DNA of 64,000 nucleotides from an uncultured bacterium (lineage in GTDB: Bacteria; Actinomycetota; Acidimicrobiia; Spongiisociales; ZC4RG35): NCBI GenBank assembly GCA_963753285.1, contig CAVWBT010000008.1, forward strand, positions 112,045 to 176,044, read 5' to 3'. Below are positions 48,560 to 64,000 of the stretch, one piece after another; positions within the stretch are counted from its first letter, which is position 1, and every line of letters begins with the position of its first letter. A program made the translations under genes and the position numbers. The notes beneath the pieces are model-generated. The model saw nothing but the letters and a program-made list of their open reading frames with translations, had not been told where the DNA came from and did not search any database.

Positions 48560-49786
48560 CTACCGCTCGACCCCTGTGGCCAACACCAGGATCGACTCCG
48601 CGGACGTGATCGACGACGCCACCTCTCGGTCGAGCAGCCCGGCCATTCCGGCCGTACCGGTGGCGCTGACATCGAGACCCAGTACCTCGCGCCCGACCCG
48701 ATGGGCCTCGACCACCGCGCGCTCGTCCACGACGACAGGCCAACCCCCCGACCGGATCGTGGGCTCGAGGAGGCCGAGCCAGTCGTAGGTGATGTCGTCG
48801 AGGATCCCGGTCGCCGCCGTCTCGCCCACCGGATCCCATGGATACATGAACCGATCTGACTCGTTGTTGGCGAGACTCGTGACCACGGCGATTGCCCCTG
48901 CGTCCTCTCTCAGGTTGGTCGCCCGCTCCTCATCGCTGGGCGAATCCTCGACGGACGCGGCTCGCAATAGCGAGTCCCATGCGCGGTACAGCGGGGCGCA
49001 CGCCTCGGTCTGGACCGGGTGGTATCTCGGTTCGATCCGCACCCAGTCATGGAACACGCCGGTCTCGATCCCCGAGGCGACGGCCGCCGCCATCGCCCCT
49101 CCCCCAACCTGAAGCATGACACGCATCGGTCCTTCCACTCCGAGATTTCCGAGTTGCTCGGCAGCTTCCCACCCGAGCGTGCGTCCCCCATCGATCGTCG
49201 TCGGGGTGACCGTGCTCTGCACCGAGAACGGCACGGCCCCGCGATTCACCGCCTCCATGAAGCGAAGATACGTGGGGTCACCAGCCTCACCCGGCCTTCG
49301 TTCGCACACCTCGATCCGAGCGTCGAGGCGACCCAGCTCCTCGACCACGGAGCGGTCCGCCCACGTCGGGATGAAGACCCGGAGTGGCCGCTGCTCGGCC
49401 CGAGCGACGACCGCTGCAGCGAGCGCCGCGTTTCCGCACGAGGCAATGGCCAGCTCCGAATCGGCGTCTTCGAGATCAAGTGCCTGATGCAGCATGACAC
49501 CGAACAGGTGCCGTGCCTTGTGCGAACCTCCGACGTTGTGGGTGTCGTCCTTGATCCAGAGTCGATCGGACTTCAACTCGAGCGCCTCGGCGGCTTCGGG
49601 CCGCATCGAGATCGGAGTCATCATGAAGCCCCGGCCGTCGACTCCGCGGACTGCCTCGTCGAGCCGGTCGACCAGCGACACGAAGTCGTCATCCGACCAT
49701 CCGCCCGCCATGGCCCGACGGAAGGAGTCGAGAAACCGCCGGTACCGAATGAACGGGTTGCCGGAGTCCAGGTCGATCGTGCTCAC
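48560..49786 (-). CDS. PLP-dependent fold type II enzyme (lyase-like)
   Basis: WIKDD...GSHKAR (PLP Lys), ASCGNAA, QVGGGA, ATGTAG, ATG. Confidence 0.82.
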
Positions 49787-51267
49787 AGAGTGGCGCCGGT
49801 CCGTTCGTTGAACTCGCGGATCATCTCATCCCATCGATCCGTGTAGCTACGGAGCCCATCCCACCACTCCAGTCGGCGCCGGGCTTCGAAGGTCGGGAAC
49901 GGAATGTCCTGCTGCTCGACCCAGGTGTAGTAACCGAGGTTGAAGATCCGACGTCTGTCGACCTCGCTCAGCTCGAGCAGATGCTCGGTGTCGGTTCCCT
50001 CGAGGAAGCGGGCGTGGGCTGCTGCGGCCGCAGCCCGGTCGAAGTCGCCGCCGTGGTCCCGTTCGATGATCGGCTCCAACTCCGAGCTGTACATCTCGAA
50101 GCCATCGGTGGCTACGGTGACGATCACATCGTCGGATCCGTAGCCGTGATACTTGGCGAGCTTGATCGCGGCCAGCATGTTTGCGATCGACGAGTACCCG
50201 AGATGACGGAGCTGGGCGACGAACTCCGGGTCGAGCCCGAGTCCGACCAGATACTCCTTGCCGGCCGGTGTGTTGAACAACACGGTCAACGTGTCGGTCG
50301 CCCGATCGGAGATGGCGACGACGTCGTCTGAGTTGGTGACGTTGTGGATGAGTGGGATGTGCTTGTCGCCGATCCCCTGGATGTTGTGCTCCCCGTAGCC
50401 GTTGTAGAGCATGGTGGGACACTCGAGCGCCTCGACCGGGACGATCCGGCATCCGTGTCGCTCCTTGAGATAATCGCCTGCGCCCAGGGTCCCCGCCGAT
50501 CCCGACGCCGAGACGTAGGCCACGAGGTTCGAGCCGCCGGTGTCCTCGAAGACCCGTTCCAACGCCGGTCCGGTCACCCGGTAGTGGCCCAGGTGGTTCG
50601 AGAACTCCGAGAACTGGTTGAGGATCACGTTGCTCTCGTCCTTGGCCAGTTCCTTGCAGGCGTCGTAGATCTCCTTGACGTTCGACTCGGTGCCGTACGT
50701 GCGGATGACGTCGGACGGATCGGCGATCCACGCGTCCAGCCAGTCGAAACGCTCCCGGCTCATCCCCTCCGGCAGCACCGCCACTCCACGACAGCCCATG
50801 ATTCGCGAGATCGCCACGCCACCCCGCGCGTAGTTGCCGGTCGAGGGCCAGATCGCCCGGTGCCGGGTCGGGTCGAATGCGCCTGCCACGAGCTTCGGAG
50901 CCAGGCACGAGTAGGCGGCCAGCACCTTGTGGGCGGTGATCATGGGGAATCGATGGCCGAGCGCCAACACGATCCGGGCGTCGACACCAGAGAGTTCACT
51001 CGGGATCTCGAGGTAGCCGGGCACGTCGACGCGGCCCCGCCGGTCGTCGGCGTTGTACCAGTGGACGCGCCAGAGGTTGCGGGCGTCGGCGTCGTCCGGT
51101 CCGATGGGTTCGAGTGCCCGCTCGGTCTGCTCCGGCATCAGCGACGGATCCGCGAGCTGAGCGAAGGTGGGGAGGACGATGTTGCGCTCTCGGAAGCGGT
51201 CGATCGTGCGGGTGAGCGCCTCGGCATCGACGATCTCGTCGTACAGGCCCAACAGTTCAGCAGTCAT
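49783..51267 (-). CDS. PLP-dependent fold type II enzyme (494 aa)
   Basis: AHKV (PLP Lys), STGNY, GSAGT, HNIQGIG. Confidence 0.82.
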
Positions 51268-51336
51268 TCTTCTGACGCTAGTACCTGCATATCCGGTGTT
51301 TCCGTCGCGAGCACGAATTCGGCACCGTGGGCGCCT

Positions 51337-52176
51337 TCACAACTCTGCGATCCTCGCGTAGGTCTCGGGGCGGCGGTCACGGAAGAACTGCCAGTAGTTG
51401 CGGGTCTCCTCGACCATCGACATGTCGAGATCCCGGACGACGACATCGTCGTCGGCATCCGAACCGAGATCCCCGACGAAGTTGGCGCGCGGGTCCACGA
51501 AATAGGACGACCCGTAGTACTCGGTTCCTTCGTACGGGTCGGTTCCCACCCGGTTGATCGCTCCGATGAAGTACTCGTTGGCGACGGCCGCGGCCGGCTG
51601 TTCCAGACGCCACAGGTAATCGGAGTGCCCCTTGGTGGTCGCCGAAGGGTTGAACACGATCTTGGCTCCGTTGAGTCCGAGCTCACGCCACCCCTCAGGG
51701 AAGTGGCGGTCGTAACAGATGTACACCCCGATCGTCCCGACTGCGGTCTCGAACACGGGATAGCCCAGGTTCCCGGGCCGAAAGTAGAACTTCTCCCAGA
51801 ATCCCTTCACCTGGGGAATGTGGTTCTTTCGGTACTTTCCCAGCAGTTCGCCGTCGGCGTCGATCACGGCGGCCGTGTTGTAGTACGTGCCGTCGTCGAC
51901 CTTCTCGAACATCGGGACGACCAGCACCATCCCGGTCTCCTTCGCAAGGGCCACCATCCGCTCGGTGGTGGGACCCGGCATCGGCTCTGCGTAGGCAAAG
52001 TGCTCTCGCTCCTGGATGGCACAGAAGTACGGGGTGGAGAAGATCTCCTGGAAGCACAGCACCTGGGCGCCGTCTTCGGCGGCCTGGCGGGCGTACCCGA
52101 TCTGCTTTTCGACCATGGACTCGACGTCGCCGGTCCATTCGGCCTGCACGAGTGCGGCGCGCACGATGCTGCTCAT
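51337..52176 (-). CDS. Carbon-nitrogen hydrolase (beta-ureidopropionase/N-carbamoylase-like)
   Basis: FQE, YRKNHIP, FWEKFYF, ICYDRHFPE (E-K-C triad). Confidence 0.88.
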   Translation of the reverse strand: MSSIVRAALVQAEWTGDVESMVEKQIGYARQAAEDGAQVLCFQEIFSTPYFCAIQEREHFAYAEPMPGPTTERMVALAKETGMVLVVPMFEKVDDGTYYNTAAVIDADGELLGKYRKNHIPQVKGFWEKFYFRPGNLGYPVFETAVGTIGVYICYDRHFPEGWRELGLNGAKIVFNPSATTKGHSDYLWRLEQPAAAVANEYFIGAINRVGTDPYEGTEYYGSSYFVDPRANFVGDLGSDADDDVVVRDLDMSMVEETRNYWQFFRDRRPETYARIAEL

Positions 52177-52219
52177 TCGAACTCCTCGGGGGTTTTCGAC
52201 GAATTGTAAATCTGGACGA

Positions 52220-52600
52220 TCACGCCACCGCGACGATGGCGATCTCGACCTTCCACCGGCGCTGCGCCAGCTCGGGAACGGTGACGAGCGTCGACGCAGC
52301 ACGATGATCGCCCATGAAACGGTCGCGTTCGGCCATGACGGCGACGAGGTCATTGCCGGCGACGACATACGTCACGACCGACACGATGTCGGTGACCTCC
52401 ATGGCTGCTTCCGACAGCATGGCCGCGATGTTCGACCACACTACGGCTGCCTGCTCGCCGATGTCCTCGGGAGTACTTCCGTCCACTCGGGCGGGGACGA
52501 CTCCCGACGTGTGCAGCATCCTGGTGCCTGTCGAGACCACGGCGTGGGCATAGTTGGCGGCGGGAGCGGGGATCCCGTCCGGCGAGATGAGGCGGTGCAT
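52220..52600 (-). CDS. RidA/YjgF family protein
   Basis: YAHAV, TSG, EQA, RAAST, KVEI. Confidence 0.85.
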   Translation of the reverse strand: MHRLISPDGIPAPAANYAHAVVSTGTRMLHTSGVVPARVDGSTPEDIGEQAAVVWSNIAAMLSEAAMEVTDIVSVVTYVVAGNDLVAVMAERDRFMGDHRAASTLVTVPELAQRRWKVEIAIVAVA

Positions 52601-52658
52601 CCGCCGAGTGTGACAGATGGCACGTGATCGGGTGGGGCCGACCGGATATGTTCGGTGG

Positions 52659-53984
52659 ATGACTGCATCCAACCCGACCAGGGTCTTGATCCTGGGAGCC
52701 GCCGGCCGCGACTTCCACAACTTCAACATGCTCTATCGCGACGATCCCTCCCAGCGCGTCGTTGCGTTCACCGCCACACAGATCCCGGACATCGCAGGTC
52801 GGGTCTATCCGCCCGAGCTGGCTGGAGACCTCTACCCCGCCGGCGTCCCCATCGTGCCGGAGGAACGCCTGGAGGCGCTCGTCGCCGAAGAGGACATCGA
52901 TGTCGTGATGTTCGCCTATTCCGATGTCGGCCACGACCACGTCATGCACCTTGCTGCGCGGGCGAATGCCGCCGGTGCCTCGTTCCTGTTGGCCGGAGAC
53001 GAGACGATGCTGCGCTCTTCCAAGCCGGTCATCTCCGTCACGGCGGCACGCACCGGATCTGGCAAGAGTCAGACCTCGCGGAGGATCCGCTCCATCGCCG
53101 CCGAGATGGGAGCTCGGGCCGCTGCGATCCGACACCCCATGCCATACGGCAATCTCGTCAAGCAACGTGTGCAGCGGTTCGAGACGTTCGATGAGCTCGT
53201 GGCCGCCGAAGCCACCATCGAGGAGCGCGAGGAGTACGAGCCGTACCTGCGGGAAGGCGCCATCGTGTTCGCCGGAGCCGACTACGCCGCCATCCTCGAA
53301 GCGGCCGAATCGGAGACCGATGTCGTCTTGTGGGACGGGGGAAACAACGACACGCCGTTCATCCGGCCCGATCTCGACATCTGCGTCGTCGACCCGCACC
53401 GGGCGGGACACGAACTCAGGTACTGGCCCGGTGAGGCGAACCTCCGGCGGGCGGGCGTCATCGTCGTCAACAAGGTCGACTCTGCTCGCCCGGAGGATCT
53501 GGACACGATCCGGTCCAACATCTCCATCGCCAATCCCGATGCATTGGTGATCGAGGCCGCGTCCGTGGTTCGGGTGGACGACCCGGACCTCATCGCCGGC
53601 AAGCGCGTGCTCGTCGTCGAGGACGGCCCGACCACCACGCACGGCGAGATGGCCTACGGGGCCGGGATGGTCGCAGCTCGGACGTTCGGCGCGGCCGAGG
53701 TGATCGACCCTCGACCGTTCGCCGTCGGGTCACTGGTGGACATCTTCGAGAAGTGGACCCACCTCGAACAGGTGCTCCCGGCGATGGGCTACGGCGAGCA
53801 GCAGCGCGCCGACCTGCGGGAGACTATCCACCGGGCGTCCGCTCAGGCGGACGTCGTCGTCATCGGAACCCCGATCGACCTCGCCGGGCTGCTCGACCTC
53901 GAGACACCGTCGGTTCGCGTGTTCTACGACCTCGAGGAGAAGAGCGGCCCCAGCCTCGAAGAGTTGGTCGCCCCGTTGCTGTGA
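52659..53984 (+). CDS. P-loop enzyme of the cyclic-2,3-DPG-synthetase/ArcE-like family
   Basis: GAAGRDFHNFN, RTGSGKS, IRHPMPYG, TIEEREEYEP, WDGGNND, EDGPT.THG, PAMGY. Confidence 0.75.
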   Translation: MTASNPTRVLILGAAGRDFHNFNMLYRDDPSQRVVAFTATQIPDIAGRVYPPELAGDLYPAGVPIVPEERLEALVAEEDIDVVMFAYSDVGHDHVMHLAARANAAGASFLLAGDETMLRSSKPVISVTAARTGSGKSQTSRRIRSIAAEMGARAAAIRHPMPYGNLVKQRVQRFETFDELVAAEATIEEREEYEPYLREGAIVFAGADYAAILEAAESETDVVLWDGGNNDTPFIRPDLDICVVDPHRAGHELRYWPGEANLRRAGVIVVNKVDSARPEDLDTIRSNISIANPDALVIEAASVVRVDDPDLIAGKRVLVVEDGPTTTHGEMAYGAGMVAARTFGAAEVIDPRPFAVGSLVDIFEKWTHLEQVLPAMGYGEQQRADLRETIHRASAQADVVVIGTPIDLAGLLDLETPSVRVFYDLEEKSGPSLEELVAPLL

Positions 53985-53990
53985 GAGTCA

Positions 53991-54060
53991 TTGGCTCTTG
54001 GCTCTTGGCTCTTGGCTCTTGGCTCTTGGCTCTTGGCTCTCGGCTCTTGGCTCTTGGCCT
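53991..54060. repeat. Heptanucleotide tandem repeat (TTGGCTC)x10
   Basis: 7 perfect units followed by TCGGCTC, TTGGCTC and TTGGCCT. Confidence 0.97.
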
Positions 54061-54120
54061 GGGCACTCTGTGCCGAACTCCACTTGAAACCTGAAACGGG
54101 AGACCTCGGACCCGAGACGC

Positions 54121-55390
54121 TCAGTCGGCGGCGTAGAAGACGATGGCTTCGTCGATCGTGCTGCCCGGGGGCGGCCAGACGCCGATCCGGAGATCGGGGG
54201 TCGATGCGATCTCGAACGGGACGTTGATCGCGAGAGTCGTCGAGCGGAACCCGCTCCCACGCTTCGCCATCGATCGACCGCCACAGCGCCGGGACGGCCT
54301 GGACTCCGGATCGGCGCGCGTCGAAGTCCTCGCCGGACACCCAGATGTACCCGTCGGCCACGGTCAGTGCTTGACCTGTCATATACGCCACCGAGGGGTC
54401 AGTCGTTTCGGGCGGAGGTGGCAGACGCCGCCATTCGAACCCGTCCGGCGACGCCCAGGCGGTCATCAGTCCGGTCTGGAAGAAGTCTCCTCCGACAGCG
54501 AAATACCGGTCGCCGACACGTGCGATGTCCAAGATCATGTGGTCGTCGAAGCCAGGCCCACCCGCAGGCGTCACCCGCCGCCACCTGAGCCCGTCCGGTG
54601 ACGTGAACACGGCGGCGGTCGGCACGAACTCACCTCCCGGTGAGGACCCTGCGGCGAGCAGGCCGTCGCCTCCTTCGATCACCGAAGCGATCCCTGAGCT
54701 GTCGAACAAGGACTGCGACGGGTGAGCGTTCTCGACCCAGGTCTCGCCGTCGGTCGTCGTGACGAGCGTGGCGACCGTCGACTCGTTCAAGGACGCTCGC
54801 CGATACAGCACCGTCATACGCTCGCCGTCAGGTGAGACGAACAGGTTGTCGACGTATCCGAGCTGGAAGGTCTCCTCGTAGCCGAGGATGCCCGGGACGT
54901 CGACGATCTCCCACACCTCCCCGTCCGAGGACCGCAGGAGCGGCCCGAGCCCGCCGGCGAACCAGCCGAACGGCGTCGAGACGACCTCCTGGACGCATCG
55001 AACGTCCTGCGGCCCCGCCGTCTCGGGTTCGGACGCCCGCTCGAAATCGAAACCCTCATCCGACCACCAGACGGGGAAACCCGTAGAACCGTCAGACGGG
55101 CAGCCGACGAGGACCAGCCTGCCGTCCTCCATTGCCCCATCGACCGGGACGACCCCACCGAAGACGTCCGTGTCGACATCGAGCCGACCCCAGCCCTCGG
55201 CTGGATCGGGACGCGTGGTCGAGGTCGTCGGCACATCCGTAGAGGACGATGACGTCGACATATCCGATGATGTGGTGGCGACGGACGTCGTGGACACCTG
55301 AACATCCGATGTGTCCGACGAGCTGCCATCGCAGCCGGCAATGGCAAGGGCGACGAGCAGAATGGCGCACATGGGTTTCGAGACGCTCAT
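54121..55390 (-). CDS. Lipoprotein with Asp-box (SxDGxxW) beta-propeller repeats; frameshift near 54235
   Basis: Lipobox IAGC, repeats SSDGEVW, TTDGETW, SPDGLRW, SPDGFEW, SIDGEAW; natural end VFYAAD* at 54121. Confidence 0.75.
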
Positions 55391-55574
55391 TGCGTGATCT
55401 TCTCTCGCGCGAGGACTCTCCTCCAGGGGTCGAAGGTAACGGGATCGAAACCTTGTGATTTGTATAGTTGATGGGGATGAGCCGAAACCTGAAGATCGCC
55501 GCTGCGCACATGGGTCCGGTCCATCCGAGCGACCGGCGCGACGACGGTGTGCTCCCCCCTACGGAGGACATCAG

Positions 55575-58160
55575 ATGACACTCGCTCCCCACCAGACGGT
55601 CACGATCACGATCAATGGCGAAGCCAAATCGGTCGAAGCCGACCACCCCCATCTGCTGGCCGCTCTCCGCGAAGAGCTCGACGTCACCTCCCCGAAGGAC
55701 GGATGCTCGCCCTCGGGCCAATGCGGCTGCTGCACCGTCTTGATGGACGGCAAGGCGATCCAGGCGTGCCTGGTGTCGATGGAGAAGGCGAATGGCCGAG
55801 AGATCGTCACGCTCGAAGGATTCGACGACGAGGAGCGGGGCCGGCTCGCTCGCGCCTTCGCAGCCAAGGGTGCGCTCCAGTGCGGGTTCTGCACCCCCGG
55901 GATCCTCGTGCGGGCGAAGGCGCTCATCGATCAGAAGGGCCCCGACCTCGACCGATCGACGATCCAGGGGCGGCTCGGCGCCCACCTCTGTCGCTGCACG
56001 GGGTACACGAAGATCATCGAGGCGATCGAACTGCTCGCCACCGGCGAAGAGATCCCCGTACCACCGGCTCCCGACGGCATCGGCTCGGGTGGAGCCAAGT
56101 ACGAGGCCGTCGAACTCGCGCTCGGCGACCGCGGATTCATCGACGATCTGCGTGTCCCCGGGATGTTGCACGGTGCGCTTCGCCTCACCGATCACGCCCG
56201 GGCGGATGTGCTCGACATCGACACGACCGACGCCGAGGCGCTCGAAGGTGTCGTGGCGATCTTCACCGGTGACGACGTCCCCGGACAGCTCTCCGTCGGT
56301 CTCATCCACACCGACTGGCCGGTGTTCATCCCGATCGGGGGGCGCACCAGCTACCTCGGCGATGTACTGGCGATCGTGGTCGCCGAGACCCAACAGACCG
56401 CAAGGGAGGCGGCCGAACTGATCCGCGTCTCCTACGACGTGCACACCCCGTTCACCGACGCGCTCACCGCGCTCGAGTCCGAGGAGGATGCCGTGTGGGG
56501 CCTCGACGGCAACGTCCTGTCGCGCTCGGTGTACGCCCGGGGGGACGTCGACGCTGCACTGGCCGGCTCGACCCACGTGGTCAGAGAGGTGTTCGAGACC
56601 CAACGCGTCGAGCAGGCGTTCCTCGAGCCAGAGTCCACTCTGGTCGTTCCCCGTGAGGACGGCGGACTCCACGTCTACTCGGGCGGACAGGGAATCTGGG
56701 ACGACCGCAATCAGATCTGCGCAGTGCTCGGCCTCCCGACCGACCAGGTCAGCGTCCAACTCGTTTCGAACGGCGGGGCGTTCGGCGGCAAGGAGGATCT
56801 GTCGAACCAGGCGCAGACGGCGCTGGCGGCGCACCTCACCGGACGGCCGGTCAAGTGCACACTGACCCGCGAGCAGTCGCTCCTGATGCACGCCAAACGC
56901 CATCCGATCCGCATCGACCTGACGGTCGCCTGCGACGGCGACGGCAAACTCACGGCAGTCAAGGCGAGGATGATCGGCGACTCGGGGCCCTACGCCTCGG
57001 TCGGCATGAAGGTGCTCGAACGCGCGGCCGGGCACGCATCCGGACCGTACGTGACACCCACGATCGACGTCGACGCCGTCGCCGTCCGGACCAACAACCC
57101 CGTCTGCGGGGCGTTCCGAGGGTTCGGAGCCAACCAGGCCCAGTTCGCCATGGAGGGGGCACTCGACCGGCTGGCCGAACTGGTCGGCATCACGGGATGG
57201 GAGATCCGAAGCAGGAACGTCATCGAACCCGGTGTGATCTGGGGGCCGGGCCAGCGCATGGACGACGGATGCCTCGGCGCGCGCTCCTGTCTCGACGCCG
57301 TCAAGCAGGCCTATGACGACGCCCGTGCCGCCGGCAAGGCGGTGGGACTCGGCCTCTCGCTCAAGAACTCCGGCCTCGGGAACGGCTCCAAGGAGATCGC
57401 GCGAGCCGTCGTGCACTTCCGGGACGATGGCCAGATCGAGGTCCGGCACTGCTGGACCGAGATGGGCCAGGGCGTTCACACCGTCGCCCAGCAGGTGGCC
57501 GTGACCGAACTGGGAATCGAGCCGGGCCGGATCGAGGTCCTCGTCGACACCAGCCGCGAGCTGGGGGCCGGCCAGACCACCGGATCCCGCGGGACCCTGA
57601 TGGCTGCAGGTTCCGTGAAGGCCGCGTGTGAAGCTGCCCTGGCGGGCGGCTGCCAGAGCGGCGTCGACTATGCCGGCGAGTACGTCGTCGATTGGACGCA
57701 CTCGCTCGAGGACGACATCGGTGAGCCCACACTCCATTCGGTATTCGCGTACGCTGCGCAGGTCGTGATCGCCGATCCCGAGACCGGAGAGATCGAACGC
57801 GTCGTGGCGGCGCATGACGTCGGAAAGGCGGTCAACCCGACGCTGTGCGAAGGCCAGGTGGAAGGCGCCGTTCACATGGGCCTCGGGTACGCGCTCACCG
57901 AGGACTTCCCAACCGACGAGCACGGGCGCCCCACGAACATGACCCTTCGGAGCTTGGGGATCATCCGCCCGAAGGACATGCCGGAGGTCGACGTGATCCT
58001 GATCGAGTCTCCAGACCCGAACTCGCCGTACGGGATCAAGGGGGTCGGCGAGATCGGGCTGGTACCCACCGCCGGGGCAGTCGCGGCGGCGCTACACGAG
58101 GTCGACGGCGTCTGGCGGACCAAGCTGCCATTCGACGTTCATCAGCCGGTGACGAGATGA
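55575..58160 (+). CDS. xdh: Molybdenum hydroxylase with fused 2x[2Fe-2S] domain, selenium-dependent xanthine dehydrogenase type
   Basis: GCSPSGQCGCC, QCGFC, CRCTGY, GGAFGGK, HAKRH, GAFRGFG, WEIR.RN, KNSGLG, KGVGE; GGAGG RBS. Confidence 0.85.
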   Translation: MTLAPHQTVTITINGEAKSVEADHPHLLAALREELDVTSPKDGCSPSGQCGCCTVLMDGKAIQACLVSMEKANGREIVTLEGFDDEERGRLARAFAAKGALQCGFCTPGILVRAKALIDQKGPDLDRSTIQGRLGAHLCRCTGYTKIIEAIELLATGEEIPVPPAPDGIGSGGAKYEAVELALGDRGFIDDLRVPGMLHGALRLTDHARADVLDIDTTDAEALEGVVAIFTGDDVPGQLSVGLIHTDWPVFIPIGGRTSYLGDVLAIVVAETQQTAREAAELIRVSYDVHTPFTDALTALESEEDAVWGLDGNVLSRSVYARGDVDAALAGSTHVVREVFETQRVEQAFLEPESTLVVPREDGGLHVYSGGQGIWDDRNQICAVLGLPTDQVSVQLVSNGGAFGGKEDLSNQAQTALAAHLTGRPVKCTLTREQSLLMHAKRHPIRIDLTVACDGDGKLTAVKARMIGDSGPYASVGMKVLERAAGHASGPYVTPTIDVDAVAVRTNNPVCGAFRGFGANQAQFAMEGALDRLAELVGITGWEIRSRNVIEPGVIWGPGQRMDDGCLGARSCLDAVKQAYDDARAAGKAVGLGLSLKNSGLGNGSKEIARAVVHFRDDGQIEVRHCWTEMGQGVHTVAQQVAVTELGIEPGRIEVLVDTSRELGAGQTTGSRGTLMAAGSVKAACEAALAGGCQSGVDYAGEYVVDWTHSLEDDIGEPTLHSVFAYAAQVVIADPETGEIERVVAAHDVGKAVNPTLCEGQVEGAVHMGLGYALTEDFPTDEHGRPTNMTLRSLGIIRPKDMPEVDVILIESPDPNSPYGIKGVGEIGLVPTAGAVAAALHEVDGVWRTKLPFDVHQPVTR

Positions 58161-59179
58161 GAGAGACCACACCCGGGATGGTGTGTGCCCACCACCACCT
58201 CTACTCCACGCTGGCGCGCGGCATGCCCGCTCCCCCGGAGACCCCGACCACCTTCCAGGGGATCCTCGAGCAGATCTGGTGGAGGCTTGATGCTGCGCTC
58301 GATCTCGAGATGCTCGAGTGGTCGGCGAAGCTCGGAGCGCTCGAAGCCCTCCAACAGGGCACCACCGCCATCATCGATCATCACGAGTCACCGAACGCCA
58401 TCGAAGGTTCGCTTTCGGTCATCGCCGAGGCATGCGCCGAGATCGGCGTCAGGGTGATCACCGCGTACGGCGTCACCGATCGTCACGGTGCCGACGGAGC
58501 GGCTCGAGGACTGGAGGAGAACCGCCGATTCCTCTCGGAGGGCGGTTCCGGTCTCGTCGGGATCCACGCTGCCTTCACCTGCTCGGACGAGACGCTCGAG
58601 GCGGCCGCCGCCCTGGCCGCCGAGTTCGGCACAGGCGTGCACATCCACGTGTGCGAGGGACCCGAGGACGCTGACGCCCCGAATCGGCTGCGGGGGCTCA
58701 CGAACGACGATTGGCTCCTCGCCCATTGCGTGCACCTGCCGACCGACCACGATCTGGCGGGCACGATCCTGCACAACCCGATGTCGAACCTGAACAACTC
58801 GGTCGGATACGCCGACCCGGCCCGCTTCGACAACCCGGTCGCACTCGGCACCGACGGGATCGGCGCCGACATGATCGAGACCTTCCGCCTTGCCTACGTG
58901 ATGAGCCGATCGGTCGATGTCACCGCCTCCCCCGAGCACGCCTGGTCGTGGCTCGAACAGGGCTGGAAGCTGGTGCCCGAGGCACGACAAGACACCGTCA
59001 CCTGGTCGTACGCGCCGATGGAGCCCTGGCACGTTGCGTTCACTGCGGGCATCCGGCCCCTCGACATCGTGATCGACGGCGAACGGGTGCTCGAAGACGG
59101 CGAACCGACTCGTGTCGACGCATTCGAGATCAGAGCCAAAGCAGCCGAACAGGCCGCCAGACTCCACGCCCGACTCTGA
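58157..59179 (+). CDS. ssnA: SsnA-like amidohydrolase (short)
   Basis: HHHLYS..ARGM, IWWRLD, DHHES, HAAFT, HIHV.E, AHCVH, GTDG. Confidence 0.8.
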   Translation: MRETTPGMVCAHHHLYSTLARGMPAPPETPTTFQGILEQIWWRLDAALDLEMLEWSAKLGALEALQQGTTAIIDHHESPNAIEGSLSVIAEACAEIGVRVITAYGVTDRHGADGAARGLEENRRFLSEGGSGLVGIHAAFTCSDETLEAAAALAAEFGTGVHIHVCEGPEDADAPNRLRGLTNDDWLLAHCVHLPTDHDLAGTILHNPMSNLNNSVGYADPARFDNPVALGTDGIGADMIETFRLAYVMSRSVDVTASPEHAWSWLEQGWKLVPEARQDTVTWSYAPMEPWHVAFTAGIRPLDIVIDGERVLEDGEPTRVDAFEIRAKAAEQAARLHARL

Positions 59180-59188
59180 GGAGGTCAC

Positions 59189-60976
59189 ATGACCATTCCC
59201 CCACTCACCCCCATGCCTCTGAACACCCTTCTCGGGCGCATCGCCGAGGAGTGGGATTCACGGAGCCGGATCTTCGACCTCCCGACCGCCCGGTTCTACG
59301 ACGTGTCGTCGGGTCCCGACCTCTCGGTCGACTTCATGGGAAGGAGCGCCGCCACACCGATCGGACCGGCAGCCGGTCCCCACAGCCAGCTCGCCGAGAA
59401 CATCGTGCTCGCATGGCTCGGCGGGTCGAGGATCATCGAACTGAAGACCGTCCAGATCCTCGACGAGCTCGAGATAGGGCGACCGTGCATCGACATGGAG
59501 ACGATCGGCTTCAACATCGAGTGGAGCCAGGAGCTGCGGGTCGCCGAGTCACTCGAGGAGTACGTCAAGGCCTGGATGATGATCGACATCCTCTCGGGAT
59601 GGGGCGAGCTGAAATCTCACCTCGGGGCGGACCCGGGACCGCACATCTTCGATCTGTCGGTCGGTTACGACCTCGAGGGCATCCAGTCGGAGAAGGTTGC
59701 GGGGTTCATCGACGGCCTCGTCGATGCTTCGGCGGTGATCGAGCGGCTACGCGAAGCGATCCCAGAGTCGTTCGCTGCGTGGCGCGACCACGATTTCAAC
59801 CCTCACATCGCCGACACCGTCACCCTGTCGACCTTCCACGGATGCCCGCCGGATGAGATCGAGTCGATCACCAAGCACCTCATGACCCGGCACGGACTGG
59901 ACGTCGTCGTCAAGCTCAACCCGACCCTGCTCGGCTTCGACCGGGTGCACGGGATCCTCAAAGGCACGCTTGGATATGACGAGCTCCGGCTCAGGCGGTC
60001 GGACTTCGATGCCGACCTCCGGTTCGATCGTGGCATCGAGTTGATCGGAGAGCTCCGCCGTTTCGCGACCGACCACGACAGACGGTTCGGGATCAAACTC
60101 ACGAACACGATGGTGGTCGAGAACCATCGGGGCTTCATGCCCGACGACACGATGTACATGTCGGGACCACCGTTGCACGTGCTGTCGATGACGCTCCTCG
60201 GCGAGCTCGATGCCGCCCTGCCCGGGGTGCTCGCAGTCGGGGAGAACGATGGCGACGTCCAGGTGAGCTTCTCGGCCGGCATCACCAAGGAGAATCTCGG
60301 GCATGCCGTCGGCCTCGGGCTGGCCCCGGTCACGATCTGCTCCGACCTGCTCAAGCCGGGTGGCTACGGGCGGCTCAAGCCGATGTTGACGACGCTCGCC
60401 CACGACATGGGCGAGGCAGGCGCCTCCGACCTGGGCGCCTGGCGGACGGTCAGGACGGCGCAAGCGCACGCTGCCGGCCATCCGGGCGTCGTGTCGCACT
60501 ACATCGCGAGCCTCCACGATCCTGACACCAACGGGGCGTACACGCGCGACGGAACCTCGAAGTTGCCGCGGGCGGTCGACCACGAACTCGAGATGTGGGG
60601 CTGTGTTGCCTGCAACTTCTGCGTGACCGTCTGCCCCAACGACGCCTTCTTCCGCCTGCCCACGCCAGAAGAAATGGAGGTGGAAGGGAGACAGCAGTAC
60701 TTCGTGCTCGCCGAGCTCTGCAACGAGTGCGGAAACTGTCTCACGTTCTGTCCCGAGATCGGTGACCCTGCCGTCGTGAAACCCCGGATCTACACGGAGC
60801 TGTCCAGGTTCGAGACCGGAGACCGCCCCGGATTCCTCGTGACGGCCGGGACGGACCGCGTCGAAGTGCGTGCGGCACCGGGTCTCGATGCCGACGTCGA
60901 GCGGCTCTCGTGGATCCTCAACGAGCCGGAGGGACTGCCGCTCGAGCTGTCCACGCTGCTCGAGGCGGGTTCGTGA
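59189..60976 (+). CDS. YgfK-like oxidoreductase: N-terminal domain + 2x[4Fe-4S], lacking the central FAD/NAD(P) module
   Basis: TPIGPAAGPHSQLAENI, ELKTVQ, FNIEWS, TFHGCPPDEIE, KLNPTLLG, MYMSG, CVACNFCVTVCP, CNECGNC..FCP. Confidence 0.82.
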   Translation: MTIPPLTPMPLNTLLGRIAEEWDSRSRIFDLPTARFYDVSSGPDLSVDFMGRSAATPIGPAAGPHSQLAENIVLAWLGGSRIIELKTVQILDELEIGRPCIDMETIGFNIEWSQELRVAESLEEYVKAWMMIDILSGWGELKSHLGADPGPHIFDLSVGYDLEGIQSEKVAGFIDGLVDASAVIERLREAIPESFAAWRDHDFNPHIADTVTLSTFHGCPPDEIESITKHLMTRHGLDVVVKLNPTLLGFDRVHGILKGTLGYDELRLRRSDFDADLRFDRGIELIGELRRFATDHDRRFGIKLTNTMVVENHRGFMPDDTMYMSGPPLHVLSMTLLGELDAALPGVLAVGENDGDVQVSFSAGITKENLGHAVGLGLAPVTICSDLLKPGGYGRLKPMLTTLAHDMGEAGASDLGAWRTVRTAQAHAAGHPGVVSHYIASLHDPDTNGAYTRDGTSKLPRAVDHELEMWGCVACNFCVTVCPNDAFFRLPTPEEMEVEGRQQYFVLAELCNECGNCLTFCPEIGDPAVVKPRIYTELSRFETGDRPGFLVTAGTDRVEVRAAPGLDADVERLSWILNEPEGLPLELSTLLEAGS

Positions 60977-61548
60977 TCACACTGGCCCTGCCCGACTGGC
61001 TCGACGACGCCGTAACGAACTTCGCCGGGCACCGCACCGACGCAGAGCGCATGGGCGGTGTGATCGAACTCGCCCGCCGCAACGTCGACGAGCAGACGGG
61101 CGGGCCGTTCTCGGCTGCGATCTTCGACACCGCCTCGGGTCGGTTGATCGCCGCAGGCGTGAACGTCGTCGTCCCCACCAACGCAGCCATCGCCCACGCC
61201 GAGGCAATGGCGGTCGCAGCGGCCGGCCAGAGGCTCGAGTCGTTCGATCTCGGAAGGCACGGGCCCACGTCGCTGTTTGCATCGACCGAGCCCTGCGTGA
61301 TGTGTATGGGCGTGACCGTGTGGTCGGGCGTGTCGAGACTCGTGTGTGCCGGGAGGGACGAAGACGCACGTGAGATCGGGTTCGATGAAGGCCCCAAGCA
61401 CCCCGATTGGGTGGCAGAGTTGGAGAGGCGAGGCATCACGGTCGAGCGCGACCTCGAACGGGGCTCGTCGATCGAGGTTCTCCGCCACTACCTGGCAAGC
61501 GGGGGAAGCATCTACAACGCCGGTATCGGGGAGGGTGGCCATGCATGA
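60973..61548 (+). CDS. Zn-dependent nucleobase/nucleoside deaminase (guanine deaminase-like)
   Basis: GGPF, AHAE, PCVMC, GFDEG. Confidence 0.85.
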   Translation: MITLALPDWLDDAVTNFAGHRTDAERMGGVIELARRNVDEQTGGPFSAAIFDTASGRLIAAGVNVVVPTNAAIAHAEAMAVAAAGQRLESFDLGRHGPTSLFASTEPCVMCMGVTVWSGVSRLVCAGRDEDAREIGFDEGPKHPDWVAELERRGITVERDLERGSSIEVLRHYLASGGSIYNAGIGEGGHA

Positions 61549-62968
61549 AGTCCAGCTGAGGGGCACTCGGGCCACGCGCCATCTCGTGGCCTCGACCATC
61601 GGCGAGGCGGTGGAGATGCTCGCCGTCGAAGGAGAGCGGGCTCGAGTGATCGCCGGCGGAACCGACCTGCTTCTCGAGATGGAGCGACGCCAACGGCCCG
61701 AGATCGACACGCTGATCGACATCACCGGCATCCCCGGCCTTGCCGGCATCGATTTCAGAGACGAACGGATCCACATCGGAGCACTCACGACCCACAACCA
61801 GGTCGTCGCCTCCGACGTGGCGTGGAAGCATCTCACGCCTCTGGCTCAAGCGTGCCACGAGGTCGCCTCGCCGCAGCTGCGCAATCAGGCGACGGTCGTC
61901 GGCAACCTGGTCACCGCAAGCCCGGCCAACGACACCATCACACCGTTGCGCGCCCTGGGGACGACAGTGCACGTCGAGTCCACAGATGGGGCCCGCAGCA
62001 TCGATCTGAGCGACCTGCACACCGGAGTCAGAAAGACCACACTCAGACCGGGCGAACTGGTGACCGGTCTCACCGTCGCCCCGCTTGCGGAGAACCAGCG
62101 CGCCGTCTACGTCAAGGCAGGGCTCCGCGCAGCGCAGGCGATCTCGGTCGTCCACTTGACGATTCTGCTCGAGTTCGCCGACGACGTCGTGCAAGACGCC
62201 AGGATCCTGCTGGGGTCGGTTGCACCGACGATCGTCCACAGCCCCGAAGCCGAGCAGGCATTGGTCGGAAGCCGGCTCGATGCGGACTCGATCGGGGCCG
62301 CCGCCCGGGCCGTCGTGGCGTCGGTCAGTCCGATCGACGACGTCAGATCGACGGCCGAGCACCGGCGGCGTCTGCTGGGCTCGATGACCACCCGGGCATT
62401 GACCACCCTCCGAGATGGAACGACGGCCGCGCCGGAGTCGCGGGTGCTGCTGTCACCCACCGGAACCGTCTTCGGGGCGACTCCGGCGGCAAACGCGGTG
62501 GTCGAGACGACCATCAACGGCACATCGGTCCGTGCGGCGGGCGCCATCGGCGAATCGTTGCTCGACTGGCTCCGCGACCACGCCGGACCGGCGTCGGGCT
62601 TCTCGCTCACCGGCACGAAGGAGGGCTGCGCCGAAGGCGAGTGCGGCGCATGCACCGTGATGATCGACGGCACCGCCGTGATGTCGTGTCTGGTCCCTGC
62701 GGTTCGGGCTCACGGCGCCCACATCACGACCGTCGAGGGCCTGGCACACGACGGCAGTCTGCACCCGGTCCAACAAGCCTTCATCGACGACGCCGCCGTG
62801 CAGTGCGGATTCTGCATCCCCGGCTTCCTCGTCTCCGGGGCTGCCCTGCTGGAAGAACAGGATCGACCGACCCGAGCCGAGATCCTCGAAGGCCTGAGCG
62901 GCAACCTCTGTCGCTGCACCGGCTACGTCAAGATCATCGACGCCATCGAGACGGCGGCACGGTCATGA
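61541..62968 (+). CDS. Mo-hydroxylase FAD subunit fused to a [2Fe-2S] subunit
   Basis: IAGGTDL, NQATVVGN, PIDDVRS, then TKEGCAEGECGAC, QCGFC, CRCTGY. Confidence 0.9.
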   Translation: MHEVQLRGTRATRHLVASTIGEAVEMLAVEGERARVIAGGTDLLLEMERRQRPEIDTLIDITGIPGLAGIDFRDERIHIGALTTHNQVVASDVAWKHLTPLAQACHEVASPQLRNQATVVGNLVTASPANDTITPLRALGTTVHVESTDGARSIDLSDLHTGVRKTTLRPGELVTGLTVAPLAENQRAVYVKAGLRAAQAISVVHLTILLEFADDVVQDARILLGSVAPTIVHSPEAEQALVGSRLDADSIGAAARAVVASVSPIDDVRSTAEHRRRLLGSMTTRALTTLRDGTTAAPESRVLLSPTGTVFGATPAANAVVETTINGTSVRAAGAIGESLLDWLRDHAGPASGFSLTGTKEGCAEGECGACTVMIDGTAVMSCLVPAVRAHGAHITTVEGLAHDGSLHPVQQAFIDDAAVQCGFCIPGFLVSGAALLEEQDRPTRAEILEGLSGNLCRCTGYVKIIDAIETAARS

Positions 62969-64000
62969 CACTGGGAACATCACAGCCCCGCATCGACGCG
63001 CCGGGCAAGGTCACGGGCGAGGCGAGGTATCCCGCCGACGCTCCTGCAGACGGGCACCTGCGCGCTCTCGTCGTCTTCAGCGATCAACCGCACGCCCGGA
63101 TGACCGCGATGGACCTGTCGGAGGCCCGATCCGTGCCCGGCGTCGTGGCGATCTTCACCGCGGCAGACGTCCCCGTGAACGAATACGGCCTGACGATGTC
63201 GGATCAGCCGGTGTTGGTGGGCCTCGACGACACCGGACGCTCGGAAGTGCCTGCAGACGTGAGTCGATGGGAGGCCGACCACATCGCACTCGTCGTCGCC
63301 GAGACGCTCGACGCCGCCCACACCGCTGCCGAGGCGATCGACGTGTCGTGGGAGCAGCTCCCCCTCGTGGCCGACATCGACGCCGCGCTCACCGACGGCG
63401 CCCCATTGGTGCATCCCGAGAAGGGATCGAACGCCTACCTGCACTACAAGATCCGCAAGGGCGACCCGTCGACCGCCTGGGACGAGGCAGCTGCGATCGT
63501 CGAAACCACCTACACCGTTCCTCACCAGGAGCACGCCTACCTCCAGCCCGAAGCCGCCATCGCCTACGTCGACGAACAGGGCAGGGTCACCGTGGAGATC
63601 GCAGGCCAGTGGACCCATGAGGACCAGATGCAGATCGCCCACGCCCTCGATCTCGACGACGAGCAAGTGCGGATCATCTACCCGGCCATCGGCGGCGCCT
63701 TCGGCGGGCGCGAGGACATGAGCCTCCAGATCGTGCTCGCACTTGCAGCGATGCGTTTGAGCGAGCGCGGCGAAACCCGGCCGATCCGATGCCAGTGGTC
63801 TCGCGAGGAGTCGATCGTGGGCCATCACAAGCGCCACCGCGGCCGGATCCACGCCAAGTGGGGCGCCAGGGCAGACGGGACACTCGTGGCGATCGAGGCC
63901 GAGGGGTATCTCGATGCCGGGGCCTACAACTACACCACGAACAAGGTGCTGGGGAACATGCACTTCACGCTCGCCGGGCCGTATCGATGTGACAACGTTC
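62965..64000 (+). CDS. Xanthine dehydrogenase family molybdopterin-binding subunit (partial)
   Basis: Manual translation MTLGTSQPRIDAPGKVTGEARYPAD...QEHAYLQPE...GGAFGGRED...HHKRH; runs off the window. Confidence 0.9.
   Translation, partial: MTLGTSQPRIDAPGKVTGEARYPADAPADGHLRALVVFSDQPHARMTAMDLSEARSVPGVVAIFTAADVPVNEYGLTMSDQPVLVGLDDTGRSEVPADVSRWEADHIALVVAETLDAAHTAAEAIDVSWEQLPLVADIDAALTDGAPLVHPEKGSNAYLHYKIRKGDPSTAWDEAAAIVETTYTVPHQEHAYLQPEAAIAYVDEQGRVTVEIAGQWTHEDQMQIAHALDLDDEQVRIIYPAIGGAFGGREDMSLQIVLALAAMRLSERGETRPIRCQWSREESIVGHHKRHRGRIHAKWGARADGTLVAIEAEGYLDAGAYNYTTNKVLGNMHFTLAGPYRCDNV

Follow-up and report, generated by a model that had tools for sequence, protein, structure and literature searches.

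Introduction

Escherichia coli and clostridia degrade urate by a reductive route (Li et al. 2025, bioRxiv 10.1101/2025.05.19.654654; Liu et al. 2025 preprint; commentary PMC12990295). In the scheme described by Li et al. (2025) and Liu et al. (2025), the molybdenum (Mo) enzyme XdhD (DOPDH) yields 2,8-dioxopurine, which YgfK reduces before SsnA opens the ring to give a ureidomethyl-hydantoin. The hydantoin is opened by HyuA, two ureido groups are removed by YgeW (with YqeA) or UacY and by YgeY, and YgeX converts 2,3-diaminopropionate into pyruvate. The commentary of Percudani calls the pathway restricted to obligate or facultative anaerobes and names the low-potential donor of its enzymes without flavin adenine dinucleotide (FAD) as an open question (PMC12990295). 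Here we analyze a related gene cluster, hereafter the island, in a 64,000-nucleotide stretch of DNA from an uncultured bacterium of the Acidimicrobiia (the window; contig CAVWBT010000008.1 of assembly GCA_963753285.1, G000:C8:112045-176044). We consider it probable that the island encodes a variant, of an Acidimicrobiia type, of the reductive route through 2,8-dioxopurine, here in an oxygen-respiring bacterium.

The core pathway is already known, and the upper genes of the island match the reductive urate pathway published in 2025. An earlier note on this DNA had suggested an undescribed pathway; this no longer applies to the upper part, but the genes to its left, for two pyridoxal-phosphate (PLP) enzymes and C-N hydrolase A, prove to be linked to the core. 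What is new is a short, FAD-less YgfK with a truncated SsnA, putative decarbamoylases of the nitrilase superfamily with carbamoyltransferases resembling ornithine and aspartate carbamoyltransferases (OTC, ATC), the SsnA-linked PLP pair, and a host that respires oxygen. A full-text literature search, which did not cover the figures and supplements of the preprints, found neither the variant itself, nor an aerobic host, nor the PLP enzymes described. Li et al. (2025) note SsnA in Actinomycetota, and the legend of their network figure has PF00291 neighbors colored ‘YgeX’; that figure may already include the present PLP genes under this label. Within the Acidimicrobiia, the presence of ygfK in 53% of UBA5794 genomes has been read as selenate respiration (PMC12008989).

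Comparison with described systems

The E. coli locus (ygeW-ygeX-ygeY-hyuA-yqeA / ygfK-ssnA-ygfM-xdhD) contains the same adjacent trio as the island: a Mo hydroxylase with fused iron-sulfur (Fe-S) domains, a YgfK-type reductase domain, and SsnA. The two are also alike in having a xanthine dehydrogenase (XDH)-like enzyme nearby and a carbamate kinase in the genome. In contrast to E. coli, the window has a YgfK without the Fe-S/FAD/NAD(P)H part and an SsnA without the first ~50 residues; YgfM is missing, and XdhD falls in the TIGR03311 rather than the TIGR03313 branch. Where E. coli has YgeW, YgeY, YgeX, and HyuA, the window genome has C-N hydrolases, OTC/ATC-like carbamoyltransferases, and two other PLP enzymes.

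The clostridial variants, as described for C. sporogenes (XdhAC/DOPDH; Liu et al. 2025) and C. difficile (XdhD-UacX-UacY; Li et al. 2025), likewise combine a Mo enzyme without FAD subunit with a reductase without FAD/NAD(P)H domain, so a low-potential donor is needed both here and in clostridia. They also cleave one ureido group hydrolytically, not phosphorolytically. They differ in that the reductase here is a YgfK N-domain instead of the PydA-like UacX, that the hydrolases here are of the nitrilase superfamily instead of D-aminoacylase-like as UacY is, and that the host here respires oxygen. The reductive pyrimidine (Pyd) pathway follows the same logic, in which ring reduction at flavin mononucleotide (FMN) is followed by cyclic-amide hydrolysis and N-carbamoyl hydrolysis. 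The likeness extends to the proteins: the YgfK model matches the barrels of dihydropyrimidine dehydrogenase (DPD) and dihydroorotate dehydrogenase (DHODH), and C-N hydrolase A is nearest to beta-ureidopropionase structures. Unlike Pyd, the island would act on a purine and would add a Mo-dependent dehydroxylation as well as end steps that depend on PLP, and the window genome is without the dihydropyrimidinase and beta-ureidopropionase pair that relatives carry.

A further variant, described from Chloroflexota by Li et al. (2025), keeps SsnA and XdhD and swaps the reductase for an F420/luciferase-like one; the same is seen in a class relative (G095), whereas the window uses the short YgfK. In class relatives without YgfK, a luciferase-like, probably F420-dependent, oxidoreductase lies between SsnA and an XDH FAD subunit, with genes for carbamate kinase and an M20 peptidase close by (L095; G095:C1:3107000-3124000); in G095 the luciferase-like gene adjoins both SsnA and XdhD.

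The XdhD-SsnA-YgfK core

The window genome is a draft of 4.07 Mb in 16 contigs, 97.9% complete. G+C content of the window is ~65%, and reading frames were therefore picked by third-position G+C (GC3) together with family matches. Pfam, NCBIfam, and PDB matches were used for calls, with scores compared with the curated NCBIfam equivalog cut-offs. The island is a real, ordinary-looking catabolic gene cluster; all eleven open reading frames (ORFs; Table 1) are open with strong GC3 bias, and GC3 frame analysis backs the called frames. Family matches and GC3 frames confirm the xdh-ssnA-ygfK-like core and the second Mo hydroxylase recognized in the earlier note, with the qualification that SsnA and YgfK are present in shortened, non-canonical forms.

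The XdhD-like protein scores 817 bits on TIGR03311 (selenium-dependent XDH; cut-off 830.45) over profile positions 2-842 of 848, and only 203 bits on TIGR03313, of which we take E. coli XdhD to be a member, the NCBIfam name of this model fitting the fused Mo/Fe-S make-up of that enzyme. The two proteins are 24% identical over their full length; the loop with Glu606 of E. coli XdhD, a residue singled out by Li et al. (2025, bioRxiv 10.1101/2025.05.19.654654), aligns to the window protein with gaps. The SsnA-like protein reaches 252.7 bits on NF005540 (cut-off 444; profile positions 58-340 of 444) and is 32% identical to residues 52-438 of E. coli SsnA, with the HxH, HIH, and GTDG metal-ligand motifs aligned. 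It begins at the HxH motif, the first ~50 residues of the E. coli protein being without counterpart, and GC3 marks the in-frame stretch upstream of ssnA as non-coding in that frame. Relatives have short SsnA as well: all 26 orthologues with at least 63% identity among the 38 ORFs listed are 337-355 aa long.

Short YgfK scores 426.6 bits on TIGR03315 (cut-off 835.3) over profile positions 5-396 of 1012. It aligns only to residues 5-405 (39% identity) and 898-995 (37%) of E. coli YgfK and is without residues ~406-897, which form the GltD-like Fe-S/FAD/NAD(P)H module. What is left is an FMN-type TIM-barrel domain and a C-terminal 2x[4Fe-4S] ferredoxin domain. The predicted FMN-barrel fold is supported by a structure model (pLDDT 74.7), which matched DHODH and DPD FMN barrels with a Foldseek probability of 1.00. 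Both SsnA and the YgfK N-domain find their best matches in their own families. Relatives of ~580-615 aa are very numerous, almost all of the best 120 YgfK relatives listed having 580-614 aa; the short SsnA and YgfK forms are no accident of a single genome. Selenocysteine in short YgfK, raised by ‘1 TGA’ flags in three relatives, was rejected by tblastn: the matches in G028 and G106 are free of internal stops, and that in G114 has just its natural stop, close to the C-terminus.

The core is followed by a second XDH-family enzyme of two subunits. Its FAD/2Fe-2S subunit has start candidates at 61346, 61370, and 61385, and its top NCBIfam matches, none of which reaches its cut-off, are to small or FAD subunits of XDH. 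The Mo subunit scores 483.7 bits on PucD and 419 bits on XdhA, both also below cut-off. The stop of the former gene overlaps the ATG of the latter as ATGA, and the pair also lies 3' of short YgfK in four relatives (L007, L010, L011, and G023).

Linkage of the left-hand genes to the core

The PLP enzymes PALP494 and PALP408 are tied to the pathway, as observed both around short-YgfK genes and across related genomes. At least 595 stretches of a one-genome-per-species collection encode a relative of short YgfK. We searched 80 loci around such genes with the island proteins, at a coverage of at least 50% and a minimum identity set for each protein; many of these loci are short contigs, and 44 extend for 4 kb or more on each side. 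SsnA (minimum identity 30%) was detected in 44 of the 80 loci, the XdhD-like protein (40%) in 39, PALP494 (30%) in 28, C-N hydrolase B (45%) in 25, and PALP408 (30%) in 15. The FAD/Fe-S protein of XDH (40%) was present in 5/80, its Mo subunit (55%) in 3/80, and C-N hydrolase A of the island type (55%) in 2/80, and carbamate kinase (arcC) was cluster-linked in 7/80. Among the 44 loci with the longer flanks, PALP494 was present in 25 and SsnA in 28. The PALP494 loci include records titled Myxococcota (Myxococcales), Planctomycetota, Betaproteobacteria, Alphaproteobacteria (Xanthobacteraceae, Roseiarcus), and Terriglobia. Pfam scans revealed the order XdhD-SsnA-PALP494-PALP408-YgfK in two loci (L054, L076) and YgfK-hydrolase B-XdhD-SsnA-PALP494-PALP408 in two others (L030, L044).

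The reciprocal test covered 120 other genomes of the same class. SsnA was found in 38 and PALP494 in 34, all of them SsnA-positive, compared to none of the 82 SsnA-negative genomes; kinship inflates these genome counts, and by family ten have both SsnA and PALP494, three SsnA only, and none PALP494 only. PALP408 occurs in 28 genomes and is beside PALP494 in every one (27 within ~250 bp, one at 2.2 kb). The 21 genomes with YgfK, in six of which the protein is of the long form with an open frame of 1116-1275 aa, are all positive for both SsnA and PALP494. In the four SsnA-positive genomes without PALP494, a YgeX-like gene is always present (236-292 bits), in three of them on the same contig and within ~11 kb of SsnA.

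A complete genome of the same family (G023) displays a compact layout, with Bmp-hydrolase B-XdhD-SsnA-YgfK-XDH FAD/Fe-S-XDH Mo on the minus strand and hydrolase A-HTH_22-PALP494-PALP408 on the plus strand. A Bmp/PnrA-type ABC transporter, guanine deaminase, and XdhABC are found in this genome and in two of the loci (L010, L076). The earlier note had allowed that the canonical genes might lie just downstream and that the left-hand genes might not co-occur with ygfK or ssnA elsewhere. Neither is the case: the sequence downstream of the window holds no canonical pathway gene, the first 1178 bp being the rest of the Mo subunit, and PALP494 accompanies short YgfK in 28/80 loci and SsnA in 34/34 genomes. 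Co-occurrence thus favors the PLP pair and hydrolase A among the genes the note had singled out for profiling, but not its P-loop gene.

Sequence features of the PLP enzymes

A profile built from 19 PALP494 orthologues matched O-acetylserine sulfhydrylase 1o58 (2.5e-32) over profile positions 96-395, flanked by conserved extensions of ~95 residues at the N-terminus and ~100 residues at the C-terminus. In PALP494, His113-Lys114 is invariant, an STGN ‘asparagine loop’ occupies 142-145, and Ser359 takes the pyridine-N position. The protein scores 46-81 bits on the cysK and cysM models, against cut-offs of 344-394, and judged by these matches is a CysK-fold-like enzyme, not a cysteine synthase orthologue. 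The PALP408 profile, from 13 orthologues, matched threonine synthase 2zsj (2e-20), then serine dehydratase and serine racemase, and the 2,3-diaminopropionate ammonia-lyase 4d9g at only 5.8e-6; as a single sequence, PALP408 had no match in PDB at E 1e-5. Its SGSHK motif, which contains Lys90, is invariant, and a GGG loop is present. We ruled out that PALP408 is YgeX itself, as it has a single 46-residue local match to the E. coli protein. Protein homologue searches with both enzymes returned generic names only.

Because of these motifs and fold matches, both enzymes look catalytically competent for amino-acid reactions at the alpha and beta carbons. Their most likely role would be to convert the decarbamoylated three-carbon amino acid to pyruvate, a tentative assignment to which we give somewhat less than an even chance. 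A urea-releasing lyase was rated below this ammonia-releasing reading; no urease alpha subunit was found in the genome, and urea carboxylase was not searched for. At one locus (L042:8450-9643), a different PALP enzyme (185 bits, 397 aa) lies 3' of short YgfK, at the usual place of PALP494 and PALP408.

C-N hydrolases and the carbamoyl module

C-N hydrolase A is likely a decarbamoylating enzyme that acts on ureido groups. Its nearest structures are the beta-ureidopropionases 2vhh (1.8e-54) and 6ftq, followed by N-carbamoylputrescine amidase 5h8i and N-carbamoyl-D-amino-acid amidohydrolases; the top PDB matches are all decarbamoylases. The top NCBIfam match is N-carbamoylputrescine amidase (aguB) with 241 bits against a cut-off of 410, and both fold and closest similarity place the protein in the beta-ureidopropionase/N-carbamoylputrescine amidase branch. 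Two groups of paralogues were distinguished. The first, 73-84% identical, is on cluster contigs in nine class genomes (order-level relatives); the second, 62-73% identical, is beside dihydropyrimidinase and looks like a Pyd module. The window genome has the island copy only, and hydrolase A also stands beside the cluster in three relatives (L012, L042, and G023).

C-N hydrolase B of the window genome is encoded on contig C1 and is 70% identical to the copy in L010. It opens a module in the order hydrolase B, carbamate kinase, OTC-like, and ATC-like carbamoyltransferase, in which the carbamate kinase scores 382 bits on NF009007 (cut-off 266) and the OTC-like gene is below all cut-offs. Modules of this type are contiguous with XdhD/SsnA/YgfK in five loci (L014, L035, L037, L070, and L077); some of the lower pathway is thus probably phosphorolytic in the conventional way, carried out by non-YgeW enzymes. 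A scan of the genome with the YgeW model detected three carbamoyltransferase regions in all.

Other functions encoded in the genome

The earlier note was correct that the window has no ygeW, ygeY, or ygeX, and this holds genome-wide: the best scores are 178.9-182.6 bits for YgeW (cut-off 500), 56.2 bits for YgeY (M20; cut-off 321.5), and 39 bits for YgeX (cut-off 532). Of the genes it proposed to look for beyond position 64000 (hyuA, ygeW, ygeY, and arcC), none is there, but arcC and carbamoyltransferases do exist on contig C1. D-hydantoinase is present in 34/38 SsnA-positive class genomes, and lies inside the cluster in L010 and L030; the hydantoinase gap described below is peculiar to the window genome. 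A genome search for OHCU decarboxylase, uricase, and HIU hydrolase found none of these uricase-pathway markers. Aerobic capacity rests on matches of three genes to the COX1 (haem-copper oxidase) family. The gene for SelD (G000:C1:642682-643608) has one in-frame TGA, which suggests that the organism uses selenocysteine.

Two other clusters on contig C4 involve XDH-family enzymes. One (G000:C4:48864-55760; L087:6864-13760) encodes an F420-type luciferase-like oxidoreductase, a cyclic amidohydrolase, a lactonase-like gene, and a three-subunit XDH-family enzyme, and may represent another N-heterocycle catabolic route. Its cyclic amidohydrolase is dihydroorotase/allantoinase/hydantoinase-like, below all cut-offs, and the sole candidate hydantoinase in the genome. 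In the other (G000:C4:70997-76214; L088:8998-14215), an 8-oxoguanine deaminase (693 bits, cut-off 532) precedes XdhB-, XdhC-, and XdhA-like genes, the Mo subunit scoring 716 bits on TIGR03313. It is possible that this cluster feeds urate into the island pathway.

Proposed pathway and alternative explanations

By homology to the enzymes characterized in 2025, the two-subunit XDH would oxidise hypoxanthine and xanthine to urate, from which the XdhD-like enzyme would strip the 6-oxo group to give 2,8-dioxopurine. Short YgfK would then reduce the pyrimidine ring at its FMN barrel, and truncated SsnA would open the ring by hydrolysis. XdhD and YgfK are both without FAD/NAD(P)H module and therefore need an external source of electrons, for which the FAD/Fe-S protein of XDH and a ferredoxin are speculative candidates. 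For the lower half, we infer functions from linkage and fold family only. The ureido groups would be removed by hydrolase A, hydrolase B, and the carbamoyltransferase/carbamate-kinase module of C1; the coupled PALP494-PALP408, in the place of YgeX, might convert 2,3-diaminopropionate or albizziin to pyruvate and ammonia; and RidA would quench the enamine. No enzyme in the window genome is assigned to the hydantoin-opening step. A bolder version, which we regard as doubtful, holds that the PLP pair is a dedicated end-module with new chemistry (for example, beta-elimination or -replacement on a ureido-amino acid, then deamination) and that XdhD and short YgfK draw four electrons from the adjacent XDH as it oxidises hypoxanthine/xanthine. 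If true, ring reduction would be redox-neutral and would depend on neither O2 nor NAD(P)H, accounting for an ‘anaerobic’ route in oxygen-respiring bacteria of several phyla.

Several points weigh against the urate pathway reading, which is based on sequence. All three core proteins are below their NCBIfam equivalog cut-offs; with these scores and an XdhD only 24% identical to the E. coli enzyme, the substrate could differ. D-hydantoinase (HyuA) was not found in the genome, where the best score is 240.7 bits (cut-off 393.25) for a protein in another cluster on contig C4, and tblastn at 1e-8 gave no match to the HTH_22 regulator. Hydrolase B is on another contig than the island. The pathway in the window genome may thus be rearranged or incomplete. 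YqeB (TIGR03309) and YqeC (TIGR03172), which serve maturation of selenium-dependent Mo hydroxylases, were not found in this 97.9% complete genome. The OTC-like gene of C1 (G000:C1:162290-166351; L086:10291-14352) is the sole OTC-type gene detected, so it may also, or instead, serve arginine metabolism. A YgeX-like gene and PALP494 occur together in four class genomes (G038, G071, G080, and G118), close together in G071 and G080; the PLP pair is therefore no simple one-for-one substitute for YgeX. In family f12, the pair is megabases from SsnA, beside a gene for a short-chain dehydrogenase/reductase.

Some of these points would also fit a system that degrades another N-heterocycle, such as an oxopurine, a pterin, or a substituted pyrimidine, with the PLP pair and the C-N hydrolases processing its ring-opened products. 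The sub-cut-off scores (817 against 830, 253 against 444, and 427 against 835), the low identity of XdhD, and the missing canonical lower enzymes are in line with this, as are the several other XDH-family clusters of the genome. However, SsnA and the YgfK N-domain are specific best matches and the gene order is that of characterized clusters, while relatives add a purine-type Bmp transporter, guanine deaminase, XdhABC, D-hydantoinase, carbamoyltransferase with carbamate kinase, an M20 carbamoylase-type enzyme, and a YgeX-like enzyme, the full logic of a urate pathway; we consider a different substrate unlikely. It is quite improbable that the system is a rearranged, partly decayed remnant in which complete purine breakdown has been lost. 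The lack of a detectable D-hydantoinase and HTH_22 regulator, the separate contig of the hydrolase B/carbamoyltransferase module, and the insertion of the P-loop gene, the lipoprotein gene, and a heptamer repeat between the operons, unlike in compact G023, could all be taken as signs of decay. Against this, the eleven ORFs are open with their GC3 bias, catalytic motifs are conserved, and translational coupling is kept; in a 16-contig draft, moreover, a missing gene may be unassembled.

Chance neighborhood was considered for the minus-strand operon (RidA, C-N hydrolase, and two PLP enzymes), which would then be an independent amino-acid, polyamine, or pyrimidine module. The N-carbamoylputrescine amidase match of hydrolase A (241 bits), its paralogue with dihydropyrimidinase in relatives, and the distance of the PLP pair from SsnA in family f12 agree with such a module. 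We nevertheless hold it to be very improbable, given that PALP494 is confined to SsnA-positive genomes (34/34 against 0/82, inflated by kinship; families 10/3/0) and adjoins SsnA or YgfK in loci of several phyla. In database naming, and in part of the environmental-genomics literature, YgfK and the Mo enzyme would constitute a selenate reductase: the source names read ‘putative selenate reductase’, the name of TIGR03315 does likewise, and PMC12008989 adopts the same reading. This is extremely improbable, as YgfK and SsnA convert 2,8-dioxopurine in the accounts of Li et al. and Liu et al. (2025), and the gene context is one of ureide and amino-acid catabolism.

If the urate pathway reading is right, it contradicts the current description of the pathway, given that the genome in which the core is found here encodes three haem-copper oxidases, with no uricase-pathway marker detected. 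Short-YgfK genes in the one-genome-per-species collection come from records titled as several phyla. Genes for ygfK that are now read as selenate reductases would be reannotated as purine catabolism. The SsnA-tied, uncharacterized PLP pair and the electron donor of the FAD-less enzymes are targets for biochemistry.

Gene organization and neighboring genes

The island comprises a minus-strand operon, in the order RidA-like, C-N hydrolase A, PALP494, and PALP408, and a plus-strand set beginning with xdhD (Table 1). The start of PALP408 overlaps the stop of PALP494 by 4 nt; the xdhD-ssnA-ygfK junctions are 4 nt and 9 nt, the ssnA ATG overlapping the xdhD stop as ATGA. A scan for promoters and terminators found no more than in shuffled controls. 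Left of position 48560, the neighboring genes encode a small lipoprotein and a membrane protein. As the earlier note expected, the island continues past the end of the window, but only by the remainder of the Mo subunit; a Na/Ca exchanger, an aminotransferase, FabH, an acyl-CoA ligase, and an ABC transporter come next, and the island end was therefore set at 65178. The probable actinobacterial origin given in the note fits the nearest named relatives of short YgfK, the P-loop protein, and PALP494, and the nearest loci, which are titled Acidimicrobiia.

Table 1. Genes of the island, with positions counted from the first nucleotide of the window.
Feature	Position	Strand	Basis
PALP408, fold-type-II PLP enzyme	48560..49786	-	Pfam PALP 1.1e-28
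PALP494, cysteine-synthase-like PLP enzyme	49783..51267	-	Pfam PALP 2.9e-15
C-N hydrolase A (CNhydA), beta-ureidopropionase / N-carbamoyl amidase type	51337..52176	-	Pfam CN_hydrolase 1.7e-65, 221 bits
RidA-like ORF, heads the minus-strand operon, uncertain start codon	52220..52600	-	TIGR00004 9.7e-12
P-loop protein, 455 aa	52617..53984	+	GxxGxGKS motif in translation
Lipoprotein-like ORF, signal peptide + Cys, Ser/Thr-rich linker	53924..55390	-	translation
XdhD/DOPDH-like Mo hydroxylase, fused 2x[2Fe-2S], no FAD domain	55575..58160	+	Pfam Fer2_2, Ald_Xan_dh_C, MoCoBD_1, MoCoBD_2
SsnA-like amidohydrolase, short form, 340 aa	58157..59179	+	NF005540 SsnA
Short YgfK, 595 aa	59189..60976	+	TIGR03315; Pfam Fer4 domains only
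Second XDH-family enzyme, fused FAD + 2x[2Fe-2S] subunit	61385..62968	+	Pfam FAD_binding_5, CO_deh_flav_C, Fer2_2
Second XDH-family enzyme, Mo subunit	62965..65178 (window end 64000; G000:C8:177222)	+	Ald_Xan_dh_C, MoCoBD_1, MoCoBD_2 (L001:3822-7178)

The gene content listed in the earlier note needs some revision. The C-N hydrolase and the two PLP enzymes stand, while the RidA-like ORF (GC3 0.81) is a weak match, with 45 bits on TIGR00004 against a cut-off of 106. No separate deaminase was found in the island, SsnA being its sole amidohydrolase-superfamily gene. The label ‘ArcE-like ATPase’ could not be confirmed for the P-loop protein, which had no match in Pfam, NCBIfam, or PDB (the latter at E 0.01); its close relatives in Acidimicrobiia run into the thousands, and their names go no further than ‘predicted GTPase’ or ‘cyclic 2,3-diphosphoglycerate synthase’.

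RidA, the P-loop protein, and the lipoprotein are no conserved parts of the cluster. At a minimum identity of 30%, RidA was detected in 0/80 loci, the P-loop protein in 1/80 (the closest relative, L006), and the lipoprotein in 1/80. The lipoprotein-like ORF had no Pfam or NCBIfam match. Directly after the stop of the P-loop gene, at 53991-54058, is a 7-bp tandem repeat (TTGGCTC x9.7, 96% matches). The 3' end of the lipoprotein-like ORF reads through this repeat, producing an AKSQEPR motif three times, and a change in copy number would shift the end of the ORF.

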